A stretch of 15,972 nt of DNA, taken from NCBI GenBank assembly GCA_039794085.1, contig JBDIWC010000073.1:1-15972 (forward strand), in the 5' to 3' direction. Positions 4,148 through 15,046 of this stretch are shown one piece after another. The position numbers were made by a program, and so were the translations under genes. Source of the DNA: Gemmatimonadales bacterium. Its GTDB lineage: Bacteria > Gemmatimonadota > Gemmatimonadetes > Gemmatimonadales > GWC2-71-9. The notes under the pieces were generated by a model that was given only the letters and a program-made list of their open reading frames with translations, searched no databases and was not told where the DNA came from. How positions within the stretch are numbered: position 1 is the first letter of the stretch; every line of letters begins with the position of its first letter.

Positions 4148-6148
4148 ATGCACTCGACCTCTTCCCATCACCGCGGCCTGCGGAGGCCCGCTCCCCTCGC
4201 GCTGCTGCTCGGGGTTGCGGCCACCGCCGCCTGTGGTACCTCCACGTCCACGCCGGCTGCCCTCCCGGCCCCGGCGCAGAATGTGTCCGCCGCGCCTCCC
4301 TCCCCCGATCCGCGGATCGGTCTCCGTCCCGGGCTGCTGAACGCGGGCGAGGCGATCTGGAATCTCCGGCTCGTCTCGGCCACGCCGGCGCCGAAGGATT
4401 TCCTCGGGGTGACCAATTCCGATCTTGCATTCACCGGGAAGTACGCCATCCAGGGGAATTACAACGGTTTCCAGGTCTGGGACATCTCCAATCCGGCCGC
4501 TCCGGTTCTCGCGAAGGGGTTCGTCTGCCCGGCTTCCCAGAGCGACGTCTCCGTCTACAAGAACCTTCTGTTCGTCTCGGGAGAGGGATTCGGGGGACGG
4601 ATCGACTGCGGGAGTCAGGGAGTTCCCACGGCCGTGAGTCAGGACCGGCTCCGCGGCATCCGGATCTTCGACATCAGCGACATCCAGAACCCGAAGTACA
4701 TTGCCAACGTGCAGACCTGCCGGGGATCCCACACCCACACGGTGCTGGAGCACCCCGGTGACACCGAGAACGTCTACATCTATGTGTCCGGGTCCGCCCC
4801 TGTCCGTCCGGCGGCGGAGCTGCCGGGCTGCGTGAGCGCCCCACCGGGCGACGATCCCAACAGCGCCCTGTTCCGGATCGAGGTCATCCGGGTGCCGCTC
4901 GCCGATCCCACGAAGGCGGCGATCGTGAGCAGCCCGCGGATCTTCGACGATCTTGTCGCTCCGCCGACTCACGGGCTGGCTCCGGAGGACCGGGCACAGA
5001 TCGAGCAGGCCCGGGCGCGTGGCGCGTTCATCGCCGAATTCGGTGGACAGCAGTTCGTGTTGCCGAACGGAATGGTCGCCGCTCTGCTCGACAGCGTGGT
5101 GAAGGCCCGCGGCGGCAGCGGCGCCCCCACGGCGGCCGACAGCTCGACACTCCGTGCGGGGCTCCCGGCCCTGATTGAGAGAATGACAGGCCAGAGGGGA
5201 GGAAATGGTCCTCGCCCCGGACCCACCCAGTGCCACGACATCACCGTCTATCCCGGCATCGGGCTGGCCGGCGGGGCCTGCGAGGGATACGGGCTCCTGC
5301 TCGACATCAGCGACCCCGCCAATCCGAAGCGAATCGGGGCGGTGTCGGATTCCAACTTTGCCTACTGGCACTCGGCCACCTTCAACAACGACGGCACGAA
5401 GGTGCTCTTCACCGACGAGTGGGGCGGTGGTGGCCAGCCCAAGTGTCGCGCGAGCGACCCCAAGGAGTGGGGTGCCAACGCCATCTTCACGATCGAGAAC
5501 CGCCAGATGCGGTTCCGGAGCTACTACAAGCTTCCCGCGGCCCAGACCGCGCTGGAGAACTGCGTGGCCCACAATGGGAACCTGATCCCGGTGCCGGGAC
5601 GCGACATCATGGTGCAGGCGTGGTACCAGGGTGGCATCTCCATCTTTGACTGGACCGACGCGTCGAATCCACGCGAGATCGCCTTCTACGACCGGGGTCC
5701 GGTGAACGCGTCGCAGATGGAGATGGGGGGGAGCTGGTCGGTGTACTGGTACAACGGGGTGATCGTGAGTTCCGAGATCGCCCGGGGGCTCGACATCTTC
5801 GAGCTGGTGCCGAGCCCACTGCTCAGCCGGAACGAAATCGAGGCGGCGAAGACGGTGCGGCTCGACTACCTGAACGCGCAGGGCCAGCCCAGGTACACCT
5901 GGCCCCCCACCTTCTCGCTTTCGCGGGCGTACGTCGACCAGCTCGAACGGTCGAACGGTCTTTCCGCCGCGCGTATCGCCGCGGTGCGCTCGACGCTCGT
6001 GAACGCGGAGCGGATCTCGGGGAGCGCACGGCGGACCGCGTTGAGCCAGCTCGCCGGAGAGCTGCACCGGGAGGCCACGGCGTCGAGTGACGCGGCCAAG
6101 GTGCATGCGCTGGCGGGGTCGCTGGACCGGCTTGCTGCGGGAAGCTGA
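4148..6148 (+). CDS. LVIVD-repeat beta-propeller lipoprotein
   Basis: Repeats of NSDLAF..YAIQGNYNGFQVWDISNP, IRIFDISD..P and LLLDISDP. Lipobox TAAC; GGAG RBS before the ATG at 4148. Follows the DUF305 gene, a pairing I recognise as common. Confidence 0.88.
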   Translation: MHSTSSHHRGLRRPAPLALLLGVAATAACGTSTSTPAALPAPAQNVSAAPPSPDPRIGLRPGLLNAGEAIWNLRLVSATPAPKDFLGVTNSDLAFTGKYAIQGNYNGFQVWDISNPAAPVLAKGFVCPASQSDVSVYKNLLFVSGEGFGGRIDCGSQGVPTAVSQDRLRGIRIFDISDIQNPKYIANVQTCRGSHTHTVLEHPGDTENVYIYVSGSAPVRPAAELPGCVSAPPGDDPNSALFRIEVIRVPLADPTKAAIVSSPRIFDDLVAPPTHGLAPEDRAQIEQARARGAFIAEFGGQQFVLPNGMVAALLDSVVKARGGSGAPTAADSSTLRAGLPALIERMTGQRGGNGPRPGPTQCHDITVYPGIGLAGGACEGYGLLLDISDPANPKRIGAVSDSNFAYWHSATFNNDGTKVLFTDEWGGGGQPKCRASDPKEWGANAIFTIENRQMRFRSYYKLPAAQTALENCVAHNGNLIPVPGRDIMVQAWYQGGISIFDWTDASNPREIAFYDRGPVNASQMEMGGSWSVYWYNGVIVSSEIARGLDIFELVPSPLLSRNEIEAAKTVRLDYLNAQGQPRYTWPPTFSLSRAYVDQLERSNGLSAARIAAVRSTLVNAERISGSARRTALSQLAGELHREATASSDAAKVHALAGSLDRLAAGS

Positions 6149-6471
6149 CGATACAGATCACCAATACGGGGTGACGCCACGTCGGCGCCACCCCGTGTTG
6201 GTGATACACTCAGGGCGCAGCTTCGGCAGCCTGGATCAGGCAACTCACGGATCGAGGGTGACGTTGCAGACTCCACGGTGCAGTGTGTATCGTTGATGCA
6301 TTCCACCGTGAAGAAGCAGCAGTTTGTGCAGCAGAAGCCGCTCTCAGGCGTCGTGCATACGCAGATTCGGCACCTCTGCTCCGCTTGCAAAGGGCTCACC
6401 TGCACCGTCGTCAAAAGCACGGCCAAGGCTGCGTTGAGCACAGCCCACGACAAGATTGCGCGTTTCGTCAT
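5866..6471 (-). CDS. Secreted cysteine-rich peptide precursor (credible part ~6217-6471; the 3' tail reads antisense into the LVIVD gene)
   Basis: Sec signal MTKRAILSWAVLNAALAVLLTTVQVSPLQA, then EQRCRICVCTTPESGFCCTNCCFFTVECINDTHC. Very strong Shine-Dalgarno site upstream. Confidence 0.75.
   Translation of the reverse strand: MTKRAILSWAVLNAALAVLLTTVQVSPLQAEQRCRICVCTTPESGFCCTNCCFFTVECINDTHCTVESATSPSIRELPDPGCRSCALSVSPTRGGADVASPRIGDLYRQLPAASRSSDPASACTLAASLDAVASRCSSPASWLNAVRRALPEIRSAFTSVERTAAIRAAERPFDRSSWSTYARESEKVGGQVYLGWPCAFR
6157..6205. terminator. Long hairpin between convergent genes; probable terminator
   Basis: Arms 6157-6178 and 6184-6205 pair at 20/22 Watson-Crick positions around a 5-nt loop, starting 8 nt after the LVIVD stop. 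There is no U-tract. Confidence 0.65.
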
Positions 6472-6473
6472 CT

Positions 6474-6486
6474 TGGATCACCTCCT
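6474..6486 (-). promoter_or_regulatory. Extended Shine-Dalgarno site of the Cys-rich peptide gene
   Basis: The minus strand reads AGGAGGTGATCCA-AG-ATG, with 13 nt complementary to the conserved 16S 3' end (TGGATCACCTCCT). Confidence 0.85.
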
Positions 6487-6533
6487 CTCCACGAAGAAGG
6501 CGGGTATCCCCAACACTGAGGGGCGGATCCCGG

Positions 6534-7673
6534 TCATTCGAACGGCATCCGTACAAGTCCAATCCTTTCAATGCCATCGGCCTCCTGAAAGACCCCTACG
6601 AGAGTATCCCCTCGTATCTGATGCGCTTGGAATCCGGGGGGTACTGCAAAACGTTGTTGCTCACTGTTTGGCGGCGGCTGGATCAAAACCCACACGTTAC
6701 CGTAACCGATCGGAGAATAACGCGTGTCGAATTCTTGAAGCAATGCGGCGCCGTCCGAGGAGCAGAGCATCGATACCGCACGAGGCGCGACTGTTGCGAA
6801 CTGTTGTTTTGTCTCGCCGAGCATCTCTTCGATACGTGCCACGAATTGTGCGCGGGCGGCCGGCGATCCCCTTGCCTCCTCCCCCGCCGTGAGTTCCATG
6901 AAGCGACGCCGGTCCTCCACCGTGATGGTACGGCGGACCGGGGTCCAAGGACGACTCGACCGGCTATAGTCTATCAGGGACAGCCACACGATTGAATCGC
7001 CCACGGCGGACGTGTGAGCGATCAGGCTATCGTTGCACTTCGCCCACAAGGGAACGTCAAGAAAGTATTGTGCTGTTTCCCCGGAAGGCCTGGCACCTGG
7101 AAAGGACGCAAGCGTGTCGGCCTTCCCCGATGCCTTCAGGCGGATCAAGTCTGACGAGGCGAGATCCGCCAACCCCATGACAAGTGAGCGTGGAACTAAT
7201 GCCAAGGGATCGCCATCGGTCGCATATTCGATGTAGCCAGGTCTTCCGTAGAAGCGGCGAGCATACCTGACGAAGACTTGAGTGGCGAGCGCGTCAAGAG
7301 TGGGATGAGGGTGTGGGCTGAGATTTGTATCCACACGGATGACCTTGTGCGTGCCGAACTCCAGGACCAGTGGGTTGGAAAAGTCATTGCGTGTGATGAG
7401 TTGGGCTGGTGCAAGCATTTCGACCGGGCCCCGACCTTGTTCCACCATGCTCTTGACGTACTGGCCGTCTATGGTCCAGGCGCGAAGGTAGGGAGCTGGT
7501 GAAACCAATGCCCACACATAACCTCCGCGGACAGAGATCTCACGATAGAGCTGAACACTGCTGTCGGGTTGGTATCGAAGGATCTCCTCAGCGTGTCTGT
7601 GGACTGTGGGTATGGGGGCAGATGGCTGACAAGCCGAAAGACCCAGGATAATGCAGGTGCATGCTCGCTTCAT
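6534..7673 (-). CDS. Six-bladed beta-propeller-type (NHL/TolB-like) lipoprotein, 379 aa
   Basis: MKRACTCIILGLSAC lipobox, DGQYVKSMVEQGRGPVEM (G-x-GP-x-E blade motif) and C-terminal VPPGFQAHQIRGDTLVGVFQEADGIERI. The start at 7673 lies 13 nt after the redoxin stop. Confidence 0.7.
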   Translation of the reverse strand: MKRACTCIILGLSACQPSAPIPTVHRHAEEILRYQPDSSVQLYREISVRGGYVWALVSPAPYLRAWTIDGQYVKSMVEQGRGPVEMLAPAQLITRNDFSNPLVLEFGTHKVIRVDTNLSPHPHPTLDALATQVFVRYARRFYGRPGYIEYATDGDPLALVPRSLVMGLADLASSDLIRLKASGKADTLASFPGARPSGETAQYFLDVPLWAKCNDSLIAHTSAVGDSIVWLSLIDYSRSSRPWTPVRRTITVEDRRRFMELTAGEEARGSPAARAQFVARIEEMLGETKQQFATVAPRAVSMLCSSDGAALLQEFDTRYSPIGYGNVWVLIQPPPNSEQQRFAVPPGFQAHQIRGDTLVGVFQEADGIERIGLVRMPFE

Positions 7674-7686
7674 CTCGAAAACGTGG

Positions 7687-8256
7687 TCACGCGGCATCGC
7701 TTGAACGCTCCGAGCCACTGCTGTACAGACCCCCGCTGCGCAGGACATTGAGAAGATCACCCCCGACGCCGGTGGCACGGACCACGCCCAGAGTATCCAC
7801 CACGTAATACCACGGAGTGCGAGCTGTCAGGGCTCGTTCCGGGCTCGTGGGGGGGAGGTCAGTCGGAATCGAGAACACTCGAAGGTTACGGTTGTGCGGC
7901 AACTCCTCCCTCGCGACACCAGGAGAGTCGGCGGTGAGAATGACGAAATCGAGGGATGAATTCTCGCCAAGAATGCTGTCAAGGATCGGCTTGAAGCGTT
8001 GGCAACCGTTGCAGGATCTCTCAAACGATACGAGGACCAATGGTCCAAGCCGCCCCGCAGTCAAAGAGAACCTCGTGGGCGTACTGTCATTGGTTAGCAG
8101 CGTAAGGGCTTCAAGGTGATCACCCACCTGCGGCAGGCGTGGCGGCACTGCGTCGTTGGCAGTCGATAGACGGGAACCCTAGGTCACCAGTTGCACGATC
8201 GCGAGCAGGACCAAGCCCCATCCAACCATCCTGCGGACCTTCCCATGAATGGCCAT
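7687..8256 (-). pseudogene. Membrane-anchored TlpA/redoxin-like thioredoxin-fold protein with an in-frame TAG at codon 26
   Basis: GAGGT RBS, then MAIHGKVRRMVGWGLVLLAIVQLVT*GSRLSTANDAVPPRLPQVGD... with TAG at 8179-8181. CxxC (SCNGC) after a hydrophobic strand and a TP cis-Pro loop (TPWYYVVDTLGVVR). Confidence 0.75.
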
Positions 8257-8383
8257 TTTTTGACCTCGTTGTGTTGCGAGTGTGCCAAGTCCGGGGAGTT
8301 GACCCACGTCTTTTCTCGTTCCTGGGGGGCCGAGCTCTGAAAGCAATGTAGTACAGCACTAACTCGTCTATATATATGTATAT

Positions 8384-8412
8384 ATAATAAAGTACCACCA
8401 CTACGATGAGAA
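8384..8412 (-). promoter_or_regulatory. Candidate sigma70 promoter for the island operon
   Basis: Minus strand TTCTCA-N17-TATTAT inside the most AT-rich tract of the window, about 130 nt upstream of the redoxin ATG. Confidence 0.35.
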
Positions 8413-8468
8413 CCTCAGTCAACCTCAATTTAAGAAGCTTTGAATGGGAGGTCAAGTAGTTAGTGATG

Positions 8469-8497
8469 CTGTTGACCCATCTTAGGAGGGTCAACAG
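8469..8497. promoter_or_regulatory. Perfect 10-bp inverted repeat (operator or hairpin)
   Basis: CTGTTGACCC-N9-GGGTCAACAG. Confidence 0.5.
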
Positions 8498-8732
8498 ATC
8501 ACGGAGGGATTGCATCGAACCAGTTCGTCAACGAGGGTGTGAGAGGGAGGGGGCCCCGGAGTCGGCCAGATTCGGGTCTACCGTACCGGCCGACGCTCCT
8601 CACGTTTCAGGTCGCTCACGTCGGACCCCGGAGGCGAAGGTTCTCCACGTCCATCGGCCCTGGGGCCTGCCCGCGGACTCCTTCTTGCGGATCAGCGTGG
8701 GGAGGGACACAAGCCTCACGAGGAGAGAGAAA

Positions 8733-8807
8733 AGAGGAGTGAGAAGTGAGATCGATTGAGAAGTGAGATCGATCCTCTCACGCCTCACTCCTCTCCCCTC
8801 ACTCCTC
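8733..8807. repeat. GAG(A/G)AGT-type heptamer inverted-repeat element with an internal 17-bp tandem duplication
   Basis: TGAGAAGTGAGATCGAT x2 (8740-8756, 8757-8773). AGAGGAGTGAG (8733-8743) is inverted to CTCACTCCTCT (8784-8794). Lies directly after the PBP stop. Confidence 0.8.
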
Positions 8808-8808
8808 C

Positions 8809-11010
8809 CTACGGCCGACCGCCGCGCCGCCGCCGCTCCCGGTCCCCGCGCTCGAGCAGCCGCTCGATCCACCGCTCCACCGAGCGCTCGATGCGCTCCG
8901 CCTCCCGTCCCCACGCCTCGTCGCGGTCGATGTTCCCGAGTCGCTCCCTGAACCAGTCGGCGAGCCGGAAACCCCCGCAATCGCTCTCGGGTGCGGTTCC
9001 CTCGAGAAAGAGCTCGCGGGTGCATCCGGTTCCACTCTCCCACCAGTTCGCTCCCTCGCTGTTGCGGACCCACGCGCTCTCGATCCCGTCGGGAACCGGG
9101 AAGGAGCCGGACCAGTCATCGGAATCGACGTCGTCGAGGAACCGGGAGACGATCGGGAGTGCCGCTCCCGCTCCGGTGGTGCCCACGGTGCGCCCGTCGT
9201 CATACCCGACCCAGACGCCCACCACGAGCTTCGGCGAATAGGCCACGAACCAGGCGTCCCGCCAGTCATCCGACGTTCCCGTCTTCCCGGCCAGGCCACT
9301 CCCCTGCCCGTTGACTCGCTGGAGAGCTCTTCCCGTCCCCCGTTGGATGACTCCTTCCAGAGCAGAGGTCACCAGATAGGCCTCGGCAGGATCGGTCACC
9401 CTGATCTTTTCCGGCGCGGGAATGGGGGGCAGAGGGTCCCCGGCGGCTGAACGGGACAGCACCGACCGGGTCGCGGCGAGGTCCCCTCCCGCCGCCAGCA
9501 CACCGTATGCCCTCACCAGCTCCACCAGCGTGACCTCCGAACTGCCGAGCGCCAGACTCGGCACCGGCCGCATGGGACTCGTGATGCCCAGCACCCGGGC
9601 GGTGGTGGCGATCTGTTCGGGCCCGACGTCGAGTCCCACGCGCGCGATGGGAACGTTCAGGGATGCCTCCAGGGCCTCCCGCAGGGACACCGCGCCGCGG
9701 AACGACCGATCGTAGTTGGCGGGCGCCCAGAGTTTCCCTCCACTCCTCACACTGAACGGCGCGTCCTCGAGCCGCGATGCCAGCGTGAACCGCGGGGTTC
9801 CGTCCCGTCCGCGGGAAAGCGCCGCGAGGGCCACGATCGGCTTGAAGGCGCTTCCCGGCTGCCGGCGGGCTGCCACGGCGCGATTGAACTGGGACGTTCC
9901 GTAGTCGCGGCCGCCGACCATCGCCAGGATCTCTCCGGTCCGGGGATCGATCGCGACGAGAGCCGCCTGGAGCTCCCGGGCCCGGAGTCGGCCCAAACCA
10001 TCCTGCACCGCCCGTTCCGCCGCCCTCTGGAGTGCGGGATCGAGCGTGGTATGAATCGCCGCGCCACGACGGGGGAGGTGCATCGGGAGGTCGACCCGGG
10101 CGGCGTCGAGGAACCAGCGCGCGTCCACGGTCTGGCTCCGGTGCTCCCGCGCCCCCAACCGGGCGTTCGCCGCGCGCTCCGCGTCCTGCTCGCTGATCCG
10201 TCCCTGCTCGGACATCGCGCGCAGGACGGTGCCACGGCGTTCGCGCGCGGCCTCGGGGTTCCGGACCGGGTTGTACCGGTTCGGGGCCTGGATCATCCCC
10301 GCCAGGAGGGCGGACTGGGCGAGGGTCAGATCCGCCGCGTCCTTGCCAAAGTAGAACTGCGCGGCGGCGCCCACGCCATGGATGGCCCGGGAGCCGTCCT
10401 GCCCGAGGTAGGTCTCATTCAGATAGGCTTCGAGGATCGCATCCTTGGACGATCGCGTCTCCAGCACGGCGGCCATGGCGGCTTCCCGGAGTTTCCGGAG
10501 GGGGGTGCGGTCCGAGGTGAGAAAGAGATTCTTGACCAGTTGCTGGGTGACGGTGCTTCCCCCTTGGGATATGCGCCCGGCGCGAAGGTTGGCGACCAGG
10601 GCTCCCCCGATTCTCCAGACGTCGAGTCCATGGTGCTGGTAGAACCGCCGGTCCTCGATGGCGAGAACGGCCTGGACCATGTGGGGCGATATCTCATCAA
10701 GGGCCACCGGGACCCTGAGCTCCAGGGGGTGGCCATCCACCGAGCCCAGAAGGGCGGGGGAGCTCCGTCGTGCCGACTCGCCCCAGGCCACGGGGCGGGA
10801 CCAGATGGCCGTCTGCACCCGGGCCTCGGAAGGTGCAATCCGTGCTCTGACAAGCGCTTCTGTGGCGAGGAGCAGGACGCCGAGGCCTCCGATGGCTCCC
10901 AGCCCGAGGAGGCCGAACTTCAGGTGATGCCGGGTGATTCCGGATCGGACGGAGCCCCGGATCGAGGCCCAGATGGTGCGACAGCGGATCAGGATGGACT
11001 GCCTTGACAT
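8809..11010 (-). CDS. Class A bifunctional penicillin-binding protein (transglycosylase/transpeptidase, PBP1A/1B family)
   Basis: GT51 motifs EDRRFYQHHG, GGSTVTQQLVKN and RKLRE; transpeptidase motifs SAFK, SLN and KTG; N-terminal TM helix; GGAG RBS before the ATG at 11010. Confidence 0.96.
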   Translation of the reverse strand: MSRQSILIRCRTIWASIRGSVRSGITRHHLKFGLLGLGAIGGLGVLLLATEALVRARIAPSEARVQTAIWSRPVAWGESARRSSPALLGSVDGHPLELRVPVALDEISPHMVQAVLAIEDRRFYQHHGLDVWRIGGALVANLRAGRISQGGSTVTQQLVKNLFLTSDRTPLRKLREAAMAAVLETRSSKDAILEAYLNETYLGQDGSRAIHGVGAAAQFYFGKDAADLTLAQSALLAGMIQAPNRYNPVRNPEAARERRGTVLRAMSEQGRISEQDAERAANARLGAREHRSQTVDARWFLDAARVDLPMHLPRRGAAIHTTLDPALQRAAERAVQDGLGRLRARELQAALVAIDPRTGEILAMVGGRDYGTSQFNRAVAARRQPGSAFKPIVALAALSRGRDGTPRFTLASRLEDAPFSVRSGGKLWAPANYDRSFRGAVSLREALEASLNVPIARVGLDVGPEQIATTARVLGITSPMRPVPSLALGSSEVTLVELVRAYGVLAAGGDLAATRSVLSRSAAGDPLPPIPAPEKIRVTDPAEAYLVTSALEGVIQRGTGRALQRVNGQGSGLAGKTGTSDDWRDAWFVAYSPKLVVGVWVGYDDGRTVGTTGAGAALPIVSRFLDDVDSDDWSGSFPVPDGIESAWVRNSEGANWWESGTGCTRELFLEGTAPESDCGGFRLADWFRERLGNIDRDEAWGREAERIERSVERWIERLLERGDRERRRRGGRP

Positions 11011-11385
11011 GGTACTCTCCCGACGGGTCGTGAGACCCTGACGGATCAAACCTAATGGGTGTTTCACTTTGCATCCTGGGGCGATGGCAACCAGTCCCTT
11101 GACGAAGGGATGACCCGCACGAGAGGATCGTCGCGGGCGCCCGGGGGCTGAGCACGACGCGCCAGGCGGCATGGCCGCCGCTGGGCAAGCCGGGATGCGA
11201 TGGGGCCTTCGCTTCGTCGGCGGGTTGGGTCATGAGCCGGAGGCGAGAGCCACCTTCATCGCGCAGCTGGTGGAGGGTGAGCCGGGAGCGCGGTCGGGTG
11301 GAGGTTTGAAACGGGAGGGTCGCAGTGCTCGTCGGGAGGAAAGTCGTGAGTCTCGAGAGATTCTTCTGCAACCGCGCGAGGCCCC

Positions 11386-12306
11386 GTGGTCACCGTCATT
11401 CGACATGCCGTCCAACTTCTGATGGTCGGCACTCTCCTTCCGCTTTCATCACTCCGCGCCCAACACCTGGTTCCCGAGGTACTCATCGAGGGGCGCTTCT
11501 CCGGGGCGGAGGGGCTCACCTTCAACGCGGAGGGACGGCTGTTCATGGCAGCAGATCGGGCGGTGTGGGAAGTGTTCCCGGATCACTCGACCCGTCGCCT
11601 GGCAGGGTTTTCGTCCAATCTCGGACTGGCGGCATATGGCCCGCGTGACATTCTTATGGCCGATTTCGGCCCCCTGGTGAGACCGCAGGCGGGCCCGAAC
11701 ACCGACGGAGTCGTCTGGCGAATCACTCCGGAGGGGGACACGACGCGGGTGGCGGACGGAGTCGGCGATCCCAACGCGATCGTGGTCCTCCCTGACGGCG
11801 ACTTTCTCGTTTCCGACGATTTTACGCATGACATCTACCACGTGACCCGCAACGGGGAGGTGAGCCTGTTCACGGATGCAATCCCCTTTCCCAACGGACT
11901 GGCACTCGCCCCCGACGGATCGACCCTCTATGTCGCCCGGATCTTCAGCAGGGCGCCGACTGAACCTCCCCCGGTCCGTTTTCAGGACTTCAGTGACGAA
12001 GTGTGGCGTCTCCCTCTGCGAAACTTCCGGCCGGCGGGCCCCCCCGAGGTGATCTTCCGGACCGGCGGCGCGACGGGTCCTGATGGGCTCGCCGTGGATG
12101 AACAGGGTCGGCTCTATCTGTCGGCGGCCCGGGAGGGGCAGCTGTGGCGCATTGACCCGGCCACGGGCCGCGGAGAGCTCCTGGCGGAAGGGCTCCCCGG
12201 ACTCGCGAGCCTGGCGTTTGGTCGAGGAGAATTCGATCCCCATTCCCTGTATGCCACTCAGATACGGGGAGGGCGTCTCCTTCGGTTCGTGCTGGGCGCC
12301 AGGTGA
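11386..12306 (+). CDS. SMP-30/gluconolactonase/LRE family exported beta-propeller protein
   Basis: AEGLTF, DPNAI, FPNGLALAPDGSTLYVA and GPDGLAVDEQGRLY motifs (E/N/N/D metal-site pattern). Signal-like N-terminus ending LRA-Q. Confidence 0.88.
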   Translation: MVTVIRHAVQLLMVGTLLPLSSLRAQHLVPEVLIEGRFSGAEGLTFNAEGRLFMAADRAVWEVFPDHSTRRLAGFSSNLGLAAYGPRDILMADFGPLVRPQAGPNTDGVVWRITPEGDTTRVADGVGDPNAIVVLPDGDFLVSDDFTHDIYHVTRNGEVSLFTDAIPFPNGLALAPDGSTLYVARIFSRAPTEPPPVRFQDFSDEVWRLPLRNFRPAGPPEVIFRTGGATGPDGLAVDEQGRLYLSAAREGQLWRIDPATGRGELLAEGLPGLASLAFGRGEFDPHSLYATQIRGGRLLRFVLGAR

Positions 12307-12781
12307 TCGGAGAACCGGTCCTGGAGGGGTGACCCCTCGGAATTCCCGAAGGCAACGGTCCCGTGTGATGGCACCCAGCCGCCGAATAGTGACGACAGCA
12401 TGTGTGGTCCGGGATGATCGGTTTCATCGCGCAACCGAGGCTGGACGGGCGTGGGTGTCAACAGATGGTGGACCGGTCCCGGAAGAGTCGATCCCGCAGA
12501 GGTCACGGCGGTATTGGCTGTGGACGATGAAGGGCGTGCTTCGGCCTGGTGCCGATCATTCGGCGGTCACGCCGGTTCCGGATGGGTGTTCCTGCCGTGG
12601 CGCGCGGACCGGGAGCGGGTGCCGGCGCTGATGTGTGTCGCCGAAGCAGGTGTCACCAGGCCACCCGCGCCGGGTTGCCAGGGCTGACAAGGTGAGGGAT
12701 TGACAACGCTGGGTGATTGAGGTGTGAAGGCGAAACGTGGGACGGACGAATTGAACCGTAAAATCTGGTTCGGAGAACACG

Positions 12782-12892
12782 ATGACAAACGGGAAGAAAA
12801 AATGGTTGGACCGTGCCGAGATCGTGCTGACGATCAGCGCCCTGGTGATTGTGGGAGTCGTCCTTGTCGTCTCCCGATTGTTTGGGTCGTAG
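12782..12892 (+). CDS. 36-aa single-pass membrane microprotein (not in the ORF track)
   Basis: GGAGA RBS; MTNGKKKWLDRAEIVLTISALVIVGVVLVVSRLFGS*. Confidence 0.65.
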   Translation: MTNGKKKWLDRAEIVLTISALVIVGVVLVVSRLFGS

Positions 12893-13356
12893 CCCAGTCC
12901 TGGTGGCCTGCTCCGGCTGAGCATACGCGCTGGGTCGCAACGACACAGTGCTGGCGGCTGGATACAGTGCGCGAGGGGTGGGTCACGCGTCGAAGTGCCC
13001 CGGGTCGAGGAGCACCGGACCGGCGGGTGCGCCGGATTGGCCCGACGGCACCGGGTGACCCGGGCCCGGACCCTGGACCATGCAGTTTTGCATGCGGTGA
13101 GAAACCGGTGACCATTCATTTCATTTCATAGTGCCCTGGCGACCGCGGACACTCCGCAGGTGGTGACACCTATCGTTTTGACGCGTGAGCCAATGGGTGT
13201 AGACCATGTCGCTCGCACGAGCGATTGTCCACGCTGCGGGGATTGCTATGTTGCATTACCTGGTTTGTCGGCGCTCCGCCGGCTAGCCACTTTGAATTAA
13301 AATTCCCTTTCCCACCAGGCACGAGCTTGGCGGCTGACTGAAGAGAGGAGAAGACC

Positions 13357-13440
13357 ATGAGCACCACCACAGTGATCGTCATCGTCCTGCTGGTCCTGTT
13401 CCTGGGCGGTGGCTGGGGCTGGTCGCGCCGTAGGCGCTAG
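13357..13440 (+). CDS. 27-aa membrane microprotein, DUF3309-like (not in the ORF track)
   Basis: GAGGAG RBS; MSTTTVIVIVLLVLFLGGGWGWSRRRR*. Confidence 0.75.
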   Translation: MSTTTVIVIVLLVLFLGGGWGWSRRRR

Positions 13441-13500
13441 GGCGAAGGTCATGCCCCGTCGGGGCAGGCCATACTTTGACACACCGGGAGGGAAACTCCA

Positions 13501-13869
13501 ATGACAATGACTGGAACCGCAGGGGGACGAGTACTGTCCTCGAGCAGCTTGACAGGTGACACGGTGGTGGATTCAGCGGGCGAAAAGCTGGGCACCATTG
13601 ACAACCTGATGATCGACACGGACCGAGGCACCATCGCCTATGCGGTGCTGTCCGTCGGCGGCCTCTTCGGCATGGGCGACAAATTGTTCGCCATTCCCTG
13701 GCAGGCCCTCCGAGTGGACCACCAAGAGAAGCAGCTCGTCCTGAACGTCAAGAAGGACAAGCTCGAGAAGGCCCCTGGCTTTGCCAAGGACAACTGGCCG
13801 GACTTTGCGGACCAGTCGTGGGGGCGGACGGTGCACAGCCACTACGGCACGACACCGTCCTCGAAGTAG
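13501..13869 (+). CDS. PRC-barrel domain protein
   Basis: LTGDTVVDSAGEKLGTIDNLMID...IAYAVLSVGGLFGMGDKLFAIPW...LEKAPGF..DNWPD; GGGAGG RBS. Confidence 0.93.
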   Translation: MTMTGTAGGRVLSSSSLTGDTVVDSAGEKLGTIDNLMIDTDRGTIAYAVLSVGGLFGMGDKLFAIPWQALRVDHQEKQLVLNVKKDKLEKAPGFAKDNWPDFADQSWGRTVHSHYGTTPSSK

Positions 13870-14217
13870 CCCCCGCCTTGTCGGTCCGGCGTGCGCCGAG
13901 GCGTAGCCGGATCGTGGGCCCCGCCCACCACCGGGACCCGTCCTCCGGATCCCTCCGGTCCATGGACCGAGCTCGGTCCAGGGGTCGAGATCGTGGACTA
14001 CCACGATTGAGGTGCAGGAGGCAGGGGTGGGGCCCTGTCTGAACCACGGAAGAGCGAGACGCAGAGCTGAGCCCGGCTCGAAGGGAATAACTCCTTCCGT
14101 GGTGGGCCAACCCGGATTCTCGACCTTTCGGGCGATACCTGGAGGCGACCGGATCCACGATTGTTCTCGTGATCGGCCGCGTTCGGATCGGATCCGACAC
14201 GGCATCAGGGAGGTTCC

Positions 14218-14550
14218 GTGAGTGAAGAATCCGGGTCGGGCAAGCGTCAGAACCGGAAGGTTCGCCACCGTTACAGGATCTCGGACCCGCAGTTCCGGCG
14301 CGAGATGTTGGTGCTGCTGGGTCCGTCGCTCACCTCGGGAAACCGTGTCACGGCGCTCCACAATGGCGACGAGATCTTTCCTGCGATGCTGGACGCGATC
14401 CGTGGAGCATCCGTCTCGATCACCTTCGAGACGTACATCTACTGGTCCGGGGAGATCGGGCGGGAATGCGCCACAGCGCTCTCGGAGCGCGCGAGGGCCG
14501 GACTGCCCGTCCCACATCATCCTCGACGGCGATTGGCATACCAGCCGTGA
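14218..14550 (+). pseudogene. cls: Cardiolipin synthase / PLD-family N-terminal fragment, frameshifted and truncated
   Basis: GNRVTALHNGDEIFPAMLDAIRGASVSITFETYIYWSGEIG...ALSERARAG. The continuation V-HIILD-AIG needs two single-base corrections (~14512, ~14528), and no HKD motif follows. Confidence 0.85.
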
Positions 14551-14725
14551 TACCGCGGCGTGACGTGACCCTTGTCGGGGATTTGGTGGTGGAGGGCCGC
14601 GGTTCGCTCCTTGGATGGGGGATCGGTGCGTCTGCTCGATGGCCTCGACCCGGTTCCGCGTGGAAAGACCCCGGGTCGCGTGGAGTTGGTACCGCGCTCC
14701 GACTCCCTCGGCCCCATCATGGTGC

Positions 14726-15046
14726 ATGGCCAGCACCTACTTCGTCTACATCATGGCGAGCGACACCCGGGTCCTCTACACCGGGCTCACGACCCGCCTC
14801 CATTCCCGGGTCGAAGAGCACCGGGCGAGCGGGTGCGCCGGATTTGGCCGGAGGCACCGGGTGTCGAAGCTGGTCTACTTCGAATCGCACGTCTCGCGGC
14901 GCATCGCCACTCTCCGCATGCGTCAGATCCGGGCGTGGAACCGGGCCCGCCGAGTGGCCATGGTCACGGCATGGAATCCGGCCTGGACCGACCTCGCGGC
15001 GGCGTGGTTCGAGGAACGGGCGGCGTTGGTGTCGGGAGACGGGTGA
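14726..15046 (+). CDS. Small GIY-YIG nuclease family protein (degenerate)
   Basis: YFVYIMAS..RVLYTGLT..L.SRVEEH...KLVYFE...QIRAWNR...NPAWTDL. Confidence 0.88.
   Translation: MASTYFVYIMASDTRVLYTGLTTRLHSRVEEHRASGCAGFGRRHRVSKLVYFESHVSRRIATLRMRQIRAWNRARRVAMVTAWNPAWTDLAAAWFEERAALVSGDG

Follow-up and report, generated by a model that had tools for sequence, protein, structure and literature searches.

A conserved redoxin, propeller and cysteine-rich peptide cassette of Gemmatimonadota and its probably inactive copy in a low-GC island

What kind of system is encoded by three co-oriented genes that occupy a low-GC island in the genome of a Gemmatimonadales bacterium, and is the system still functional there? 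The island lies in contig JBDIWC010000073.1 (C73; assembly GCA_039794085.1), the whole of which, 15,972 nucleotides (nt) in length, is the window analysed here. The host genome (G000) comprises 4.16 Mb with 66.8% GC; the sequencing runs that contain window DNA are hot-spring runs, and no RNA run is present among those listed. A first-pass annotation had proposed that a redoxin, a beta-propeller lipoprotein and a secreted cysteine-rich peptide form an undescribed operon, and our gene calls agree with its arrangement of three minus-strand genes with gaps of 13 nt (redoxin-propeller) and 62 nt (propeller-peptide); an alternative propeller start at 7697 would overlap the redoxin stop codon. The low GC content is likewise genuine, as positions 6150-8502 contain 57.2% GC versus 66.9 +/- 2.3% in genome windows of the same size, placing the island among the lowest 0.13% of 7,835 such windows, and the annotation's line counts of 32/60 inside and 42/60 outside the island are correct. 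Cassettes of this type are conserved among Gemmatimonadota, and we consider it very probable both that this conserved type is real and that the copy in the window is broken; these two conclusions are far more certain than any function proposed below.

If the three genes constitute a system, they should recur together, as the annotation had reasoned, and a redoxin, a propeller and a peptide with a signal and a CC-x2-CC motif are indeed encoded in the same order in other genomes. The arrangement of the window is found in genome G077, where the peptide has 74 residues and eight cysteines, and in G509 and metagenome contigs (three), where a second peptide and a TAP-like peptidase are added. Using search profiles seeded from five of these loci, we found 46 distinct propeller open reading frames (ORFs) scoring >100 bits, of which 19 have a redoxin gene upstream and 27 do not. 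Sixteen of the redoxin-linked propellers are followed by a peptide gene (in one case by its signal part only, at a contig end), one is preceded by a peptide gene and two lie at a sequence edge; 26 of the redoxin-less propellers have no peptide, and the remaining one, which does have peptides, begins at the edge of a contig. Neighbourhoods were also assembled starting from the peptide, for 40 of the 55 places in which its profile matches. A redoxin gene is present in 36 of these loci, the cognate propeller in 14 and another DUF5128-type propeller in 23. The redoxin is the constant partner of the peptide and the cognate propeller is optional, such that the propeller, which the annotation had counted as a member of the system, belongs to it in a minority of the peptide loci.

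The peptide-first loci also revealed a context that had not been foreseen, consisting of genes for an extracytoplasmic function (ECF) sigma factor (36/40), a membrane anti-sigma factor with a zinc-motif-like sequence (23/40), an AraC-like helix-turn-helix (HTH) protein (11/40) and a six-helix membrane protein (36/40), the last encoded directly downstream of the peptide and in the same orientation in 29 loci. This membrane protein (L105:6325-7059 and 25 relatives, alignment A10) is unannotated and has a conserved periplasmic loop; it shows weak similarity to LptF/LptG (E 0.004), and its profile matched no solved structure. In a second form, the protein is extended by a fused anti-sigma-like tail. 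The ECF sigma and membrane anti-sigma genes present in loci of family f7 are absent from the island in the window, in which traces of HTH, ECF and membrane-protein genes were looked for and none was detected. Cassettes also occur in tandem, as a near-identical duplication in G189:C1 (L049) and as three diverged copies in G348:C121 (L090/L131), the third of which is frameshifted in propeller and peptide; frameshifted cassette genes were found in both G147 and G348.

The peptides share a Sec-type hydrophobic N-terminal signal with a conserved Asn, followed by the consensus CC-x8/9-CC-x2-CC-x5-C-x5-C and a short tail, with variable loops between the fixed cysteine positions. Exactly eight cysteines are found in 53/54 members from genomes (the window peptide, with nine, is the odd one out) and in 51/56 and 141/150 members of a peptide library that comprises 231 clusters at 50% identity. 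The cores are neutral to acidic (37/52 carry a net negative charge) and consist of 26% Cys, 1.6% His and 0.6% Met, and the family alignment contains no invariant Trp or Trp pair. No Pfam, NCBIfam or PDB family was matched by the peptide alignments, the Pfam family NVEALA (PF14055) matched 0 of 20 members, and Atlas matches to the peptide all fall below 0.9 and serve as leads only. A low-confidence model of the peptide (predicted local distance difference test score, pLDDT, 69; predicted template modelling score, pTM, 0.38) shows a signal helix, two short strands and one helical turn. The 55 profile matches are distributed over 22 of 401 Gemmatimonadota genomes, family f7 accounting for 20 of the 22, with up to five paralogues per genome, and the host genome has no second peptide gene and no cognate redoxin gene elsewhere. 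A literature search in openly accessible papers found no description of this peptide cassette, and the available part of PMC11651109 mentions only ranthipeptide-type cysteine-rich peptides for marine Gemmatimonadota. The peptide family is real and apparently undescribed.

The active-site region of the window redoxin contains the motifs CNGC and TPW, which correspond to CxxC/S/T and TPW in its relatives. Whereas the first cysteine is conserved in 45 of 45 sequences, the second position is occupied by Cys in 18, Ser in 19 and Thr in 8. The annotation had likened the protein to TlpA-type CxxC proteins; the motif is present, but because 27 of the 45 sequences carry Ser or Thr in place of the second cysteine, the redoxin appears better suited to a one-cysteine catalyst, shuffling disulfides or holding mixed disulfides, than to a classical TlpA reductase. 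This reading leans on general thioredoxin chemistry. The redoxin domain in the window matches no Pfam family, and its match to MauD is weak (E 0.13; 11.7 bits versus a cut-off of 188.6); intact relatives score 19.5 and 24.6 against AhpC-TSA, below the threshold of 26. Genes for DsbA-like, VKOR and DsbD proteins are carried by the host genome.

The propeller is modelled by AlphaFold2 with pLDDT 86.6 and pTM 0.86, with a helical insertion at 252-287. Foldseek relates the model to NHL six-bladed propellers and to the Bacteroides structure 4raa at a TM-score of ~0.5, 4raa being recovered by sequence profile as well, and Atlas places it with DUF5128 clusters (0.95). PF17170 (DUF5128) itself does not match the window propeller and matches 3 of 42 relatives weakly (best E 0.00024), no Pfam or NCBIfam family was found for any of the three window proteins, and a single-sequence search with the propeller retrieved only itself. 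DUF5128 lipoproteins and the propeller described here are alike in the structural match to 4raa and in pairing an NHL-type six-bladed lipoprotein with an adjoining small secreted protein, as in the NVEALA/propeller neighbourhoods of Bacteroidales, which may be comparable loci; they differ in that the peptide here is not an NVEALA protein and the window propeller lacks a PF17170 match. Of 401 genomes from the phylum, 62 encode relatives of the propeller. At 12 of the 13 peptide-less loci that carry the regulatory set, the propeller is fused behind an anti-sigma-like domain (L043:5732-7405, L045, L047, L048, L050, L052-L054, L056, L058, L084 and L085). The fusion comprises an anti-sigma-like two-helix domain and an internal lipobox, encoded downstream of the membrane-protein and ECF genes, and possibly represents either a receptor joined to its anti-sigma factor or a polyprotein that signal peptidase II cleaves. 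At three further loci (L059, L060 and L073, in G119, G018 and G180), a DsbA-like gene rather than this redoxin precedes a propeller relative, and no eight-cysteine peptide was detected there.

Is the copy in the window functional? Its redoxin frame is interrupted by an in-frame TAG at codon 26 (8181-8179), past the anchor helix but ahead of the CNGC domain, and the frame aligns without a break across this codon with an intact homologue; a soil-run contig from a related strain has an A at 8180, which yields a Leu codon instead of the stop. Because the TAG directly follows the anchor helix, the window copy encodes no anchored redoxin, whereas an N-terminal anchor is in frame in 49 of 50 distinct redoxin ORFs. 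The annotation had credited all three products with export signals, and by inspection and hydropathy all three have hydrophobic N-termini, with a lipobox-like LSAC present, but the redoxin anchor is severed by the stop. The peptide ORF, supposed to be short, spans 201 codons with its first stop at 5866, crossing the hairpin at the island edge and then extending, antisense, 283 nt into the adjacent gene, such that its tail is the longest seen in the family (median 4, next longest 69). The ninth cysteine lies in the first loop (C-x2-C-x-C-x7-CC). Directly after the last canonical cysteine, another frame offers a tenth cysteine and a stop within ten codons (~6247), and the library member P0183, CC-x-C-x7-CC-x2-CC-x5-C-x5-C-x4-C, shows exactly this design; the likeliest history of the run-on would therefore be the loss of one base near 6270 in a ten-cysteine variant.

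Assembly error was rejected as the cause of both lesions, which are repeated in identical letters by contigs from three runs of the source sample (one sample, and thus not independent). Recoding of the TAG was likewise rejected, as no CUA-anticodon (amber) tRNA is among the tRNAs found and the related strain has a sense codon at this position; a selenocysteine tRNA is present in the host genome. Of the differences from related strains, 9 of 21 in the cassette affect a third codon position, as against 15 of 19 in the flanks (Fisher p 0.03; for the 40 differences listed out of 74), a pattern compatible with relaxed or diversifying selection. The same observations bear on the possibility that the copy is still active through read-through of the stop, re-initiation at GTG 8148 or programmed frameshifting. 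The unbroken propeller frame and the strong ribosome-binding sites preceding the redoxin and peptide genes would suit such activity, yet GTG 8148 has no ribosome-binding site, and with the missing amber tRNA, the sense codon in the related strain and the third-position pattern also against it, we regard it as highly improbable. The window copy is probably inactive and decaying.

The surroundings of the cassette indicate how it came to this site. It is flanked by the gene for an LVIVD-repeat protein, ending at 6148, and that for a penicillin-binding protein, ending at 8809. Homology to the congener G001 breaks off at 6149 and restarts at 8802, with both flanks 89-91% identical, and G001 has at this site a nucleotidyltransferase gene and a small partner gene (62 residues) but no cassette. 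A 115-nt frameshifted 3′ remnant of a DUF6036/AbiEii-like nucleotidyltransferase gene persists in the window at 8597-8710. A soil run from a separate study yielded one contig in which 6146 is joined to 8720, representing the empty site, and five other short contigs that span parts of all three genes at ~91-97% identity; this evidence consists of single contigs with a depth of 2-4. Because both the congener and the soil-metagenome contig lack the block, it is an insertion between the LVIVD and penicillin-binding-protein genes, and the copy in the window carries a redoxin nonsense codon and a peptide run-on. Comparison with plasmids gave no match, and no donor can be named because the redoxin tree leaves the window sequence on a long branch without supported placement. 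The AT-rich, promoter-like tract and the long hairpin that the annotation had placed around the genes are both present (Table 1). The hairpin occurs as a single full copy in the genome, and terminator prediction did not call it.

Table 1. Positions of the cassette genes and associated features in the window
Feature	Position	Strand	Evidence
Putative promoter region, AT-rich	8341..8500	-	39% GC; two sigma-70-like sites versus 0.6 expected
Redoxin gene, thioredoxin fold (CNGC, TPW), membrane anchor, TAG-interrupted, probable pseudogene	7687..8256	-	Homologue alignment, motifs, Leu codon in related strain
NHL/DUF5128-like six-bladed beta-propeller lipoprotein, 379 aa, intact frame	6534..7673	-	AlphaFold2, Foldseek, Atlas
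Secreted cysteine-rich peptide gene with aberrant 137-codon run-on tail	5866..6471	-	Signal peptide and cysteine core family-like to ~6270
Long hairpin, island edge, possible terminator	6157..6205		z = -7.8; no U tract
Inserted block: cassette and nucleotidyltransferase remnant (8597-8710)	6147..8719		Congener G001 and soil-run contig

Several further observations concern the DNA around the cassette. An ORF at 8120-8515 over the AT-rich tract was rejected as spurious, as it matches no family and overlaps the redoxin gene out of frame. An inverted-repeat pair at 8720-8751 and 8776-8807 belongs to a dispersed REP-like family, some members of which are in tandem, with 52 matches in the host genome and 22 in G001. 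The join of the empty site falls at 8720, the start of one arm; the 5′ part of the nucleotidyltransferase gene, present in G001, is missing between the arms, and an intact nucleotidyltransferase and partner pair is located elsewhere in the host genome, on C72. Stutter repeats with a 7-8-nt unit form an inverted pair at 202-254 and 542-567. A 3.5-kb block at 11137-14668 that is not in G001 at the same site encodes an SGL-family propeller, a PRC-barrel protein and the truncated start of a phospholipase D-like gene (14218-14550). A GIY-YIG nuclease gene lies at 14615-15046, and a 59-nt remnant of it (86% identical) lies 1.8 kb upstream, at 12999-13057.

With respect to function, we propose, at a probability of roughly 0.45, that the intact cassette is dedicated to the oxidative folding of a secreted miniprotein with four disulfides, whose role is that of an envelope signal or ligand, and that the propeller is an optional surface binder. 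The peptide would be exported via Sec and its signal cleaved, and the redoxin, using its first cysteine only, would shuffle the eight cysteines into four disulfides, with DsbA/VKOR of the host as electron sink and DsbD as electron source. More tentatively, the propeller might read the variable loops on the fixed scaffold, as might a relay of six-helix membrane protein, anti-sigma and ECF factors where these are present. The window copy has no relay; its redoxin would be either missing or free of an anchor, and its peptide would have a long tail and one cysteine left unpaired. The annotation's suggestion that a disulfide-rich peptide is encoded together with an enzyme for its folding is the best reading of the cassette type; this copy is broken twice. 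Several points weigh against the proposal. All 40 peptide-first loci come from family f7, mostly from one genus, and such kin are not independent. Redoxin without a cognate propeller is found at 22 of the 40. The membrane protein/ECF/anti-sigma set occurs at 13 of 20 propeller-only loci without any peptide and may, because of this, simply regulate varied cargo. Conversely, the peptide is kept without the set in the window, G077 and G509, whose cassettes do not include it (in G077 there is no more than a weak HTH match). As to the history of the window copy, contig cover from the related strain ends at 6273, short of the frameshift site.

The association with ECF factors raises the alternative that the peptide is an output, an ECF-induced periplasmic stress or metal buffer of the bufferin or metallothionein kind, which the redoxin keeps reduced or repaired. 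Bufferins, as far as the available part of the source describes them, are Sec-exported cysteine-rich peptides under SigF/NrsF control (PMC11626156), and the likeness of the Caulobacter buf1/buf2 loci extends to a small cysteine-rich protein linked to an ECF sigma/anti-sigma pair; in f7 loci, moreover, peptide genes head ECF-linked operons, and the cores are acidic and rich in cysteine. From what that source shows, the loci described here differ in lacking MNIO (DUF692), DUF2063 and DoxX, in their eight fixed cysteines arranged with CC pairs, and in having a thioredoxin-fold protein and a propeller as partners (PMC11626156). No MNIO/DUF692 or DUF2063 family is present in the recurring neighbour clusters or among the window genes, the neighbours having been clustered and not individually scanned for DUF692. 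The fixed and even cysteine number, the scarcity of His and Met, and the many divergent paralogues per genome, which would suit specificity over bulk buffering, also make this alternative unlikely. An antagonistic role, in which the peptide is a bacteriocin rich in disulfides or a toxin aimed at a receptor and the propeller lipoprotein confers immunity, would fit a cassette that is mobile, patchy (22/401 genomes) and often broken (frameshifts in G147 and G348), as well as the two peptides and TAP-like peptidase of G509. Sublancin provides a precedent: in the portion of the source available, its operon, sunA-sunT-bdbA-sunS-bdbB, encodes a secreted disulfide peptide together with its own thiol-disulfide oxidoreductase, BdbB (PMC6391423). 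On the same partial account, the present peptides differ in carrying a Sec-type signal where sublancin has a leader that a SunT-type exporter removes; a glycosyltransferase is lacking, the core is not cationic and the host is Gram-negative (PMC6391423). Neither a double-glycine leader nor a recurring peptidase-containing exporter or modifying enzyme was met at the peptide loci, and the negatively charged cores speak against the classical bacteriocin that the annotation had offered as an option; an immunity gene would be expected to be obligatory, yet the cognate propeller is missing from 26 of the 40 peptide loci. We therefore judge antagonism to be quite unlikely.

The same three types of part are found in the mau cluster, where MauB is a propeller, MauD a redoxin and MauA a disulfide-rich subunit of methylamine dehydrogenase, and the peptide might by analogy be the small subunit of a propeller enzyme. 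The likeness comprises a propeller, a redoxin and a small exported cysteine-rich protein, to which the weak MauD match could be added. However, the invariant Trp pair required for the quinone cofactor is missing, no MauG/MauE or radical SAM family recurs among the neighbours, and the propeller is NHL-type, six-bladed and optional, which leaves this explanation exceedingly improbable.

The oxidative-folding reading that we prefer might extend to the phylum. In that case, peptide signalling in Gemmatimonadota could rely on a large family of miniproteins that are exported via Sec and contain four disulfides, each miniprotein having its own one-cysteine redoxin for folding. A six-bladed propeller lipoprotein, in some instances joined to the anti-sigma domain itself, would capture the miniprotein, and the six-helix membrane protein of LptF/G-like type would act with anti-sigma and ECF factors as the readout, through several specificity channels per genome; in this full form the proposal is tentative and somewhat doubtful. 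For experiments, the intact cassettes of G077, G509 and G365 are available, the window copy being a poor choice. The cassette offers a candidate role for many orphan DUF5128-type propellers, and a large unannotated peptide family with a fixed cysteine frame, variable loops and an adjoining, probably dedicated folding enzyme is a ready system for testing what Gram-negative bacteria do with disulfide-rich miniproteins and how these are folded. Should the extended proposal be true, the cassettes would exemplify a mode of peptide communication new to Gram-negative bacteria, and the family would constitute a naturally occurring library of compact disulfide scaffolds.

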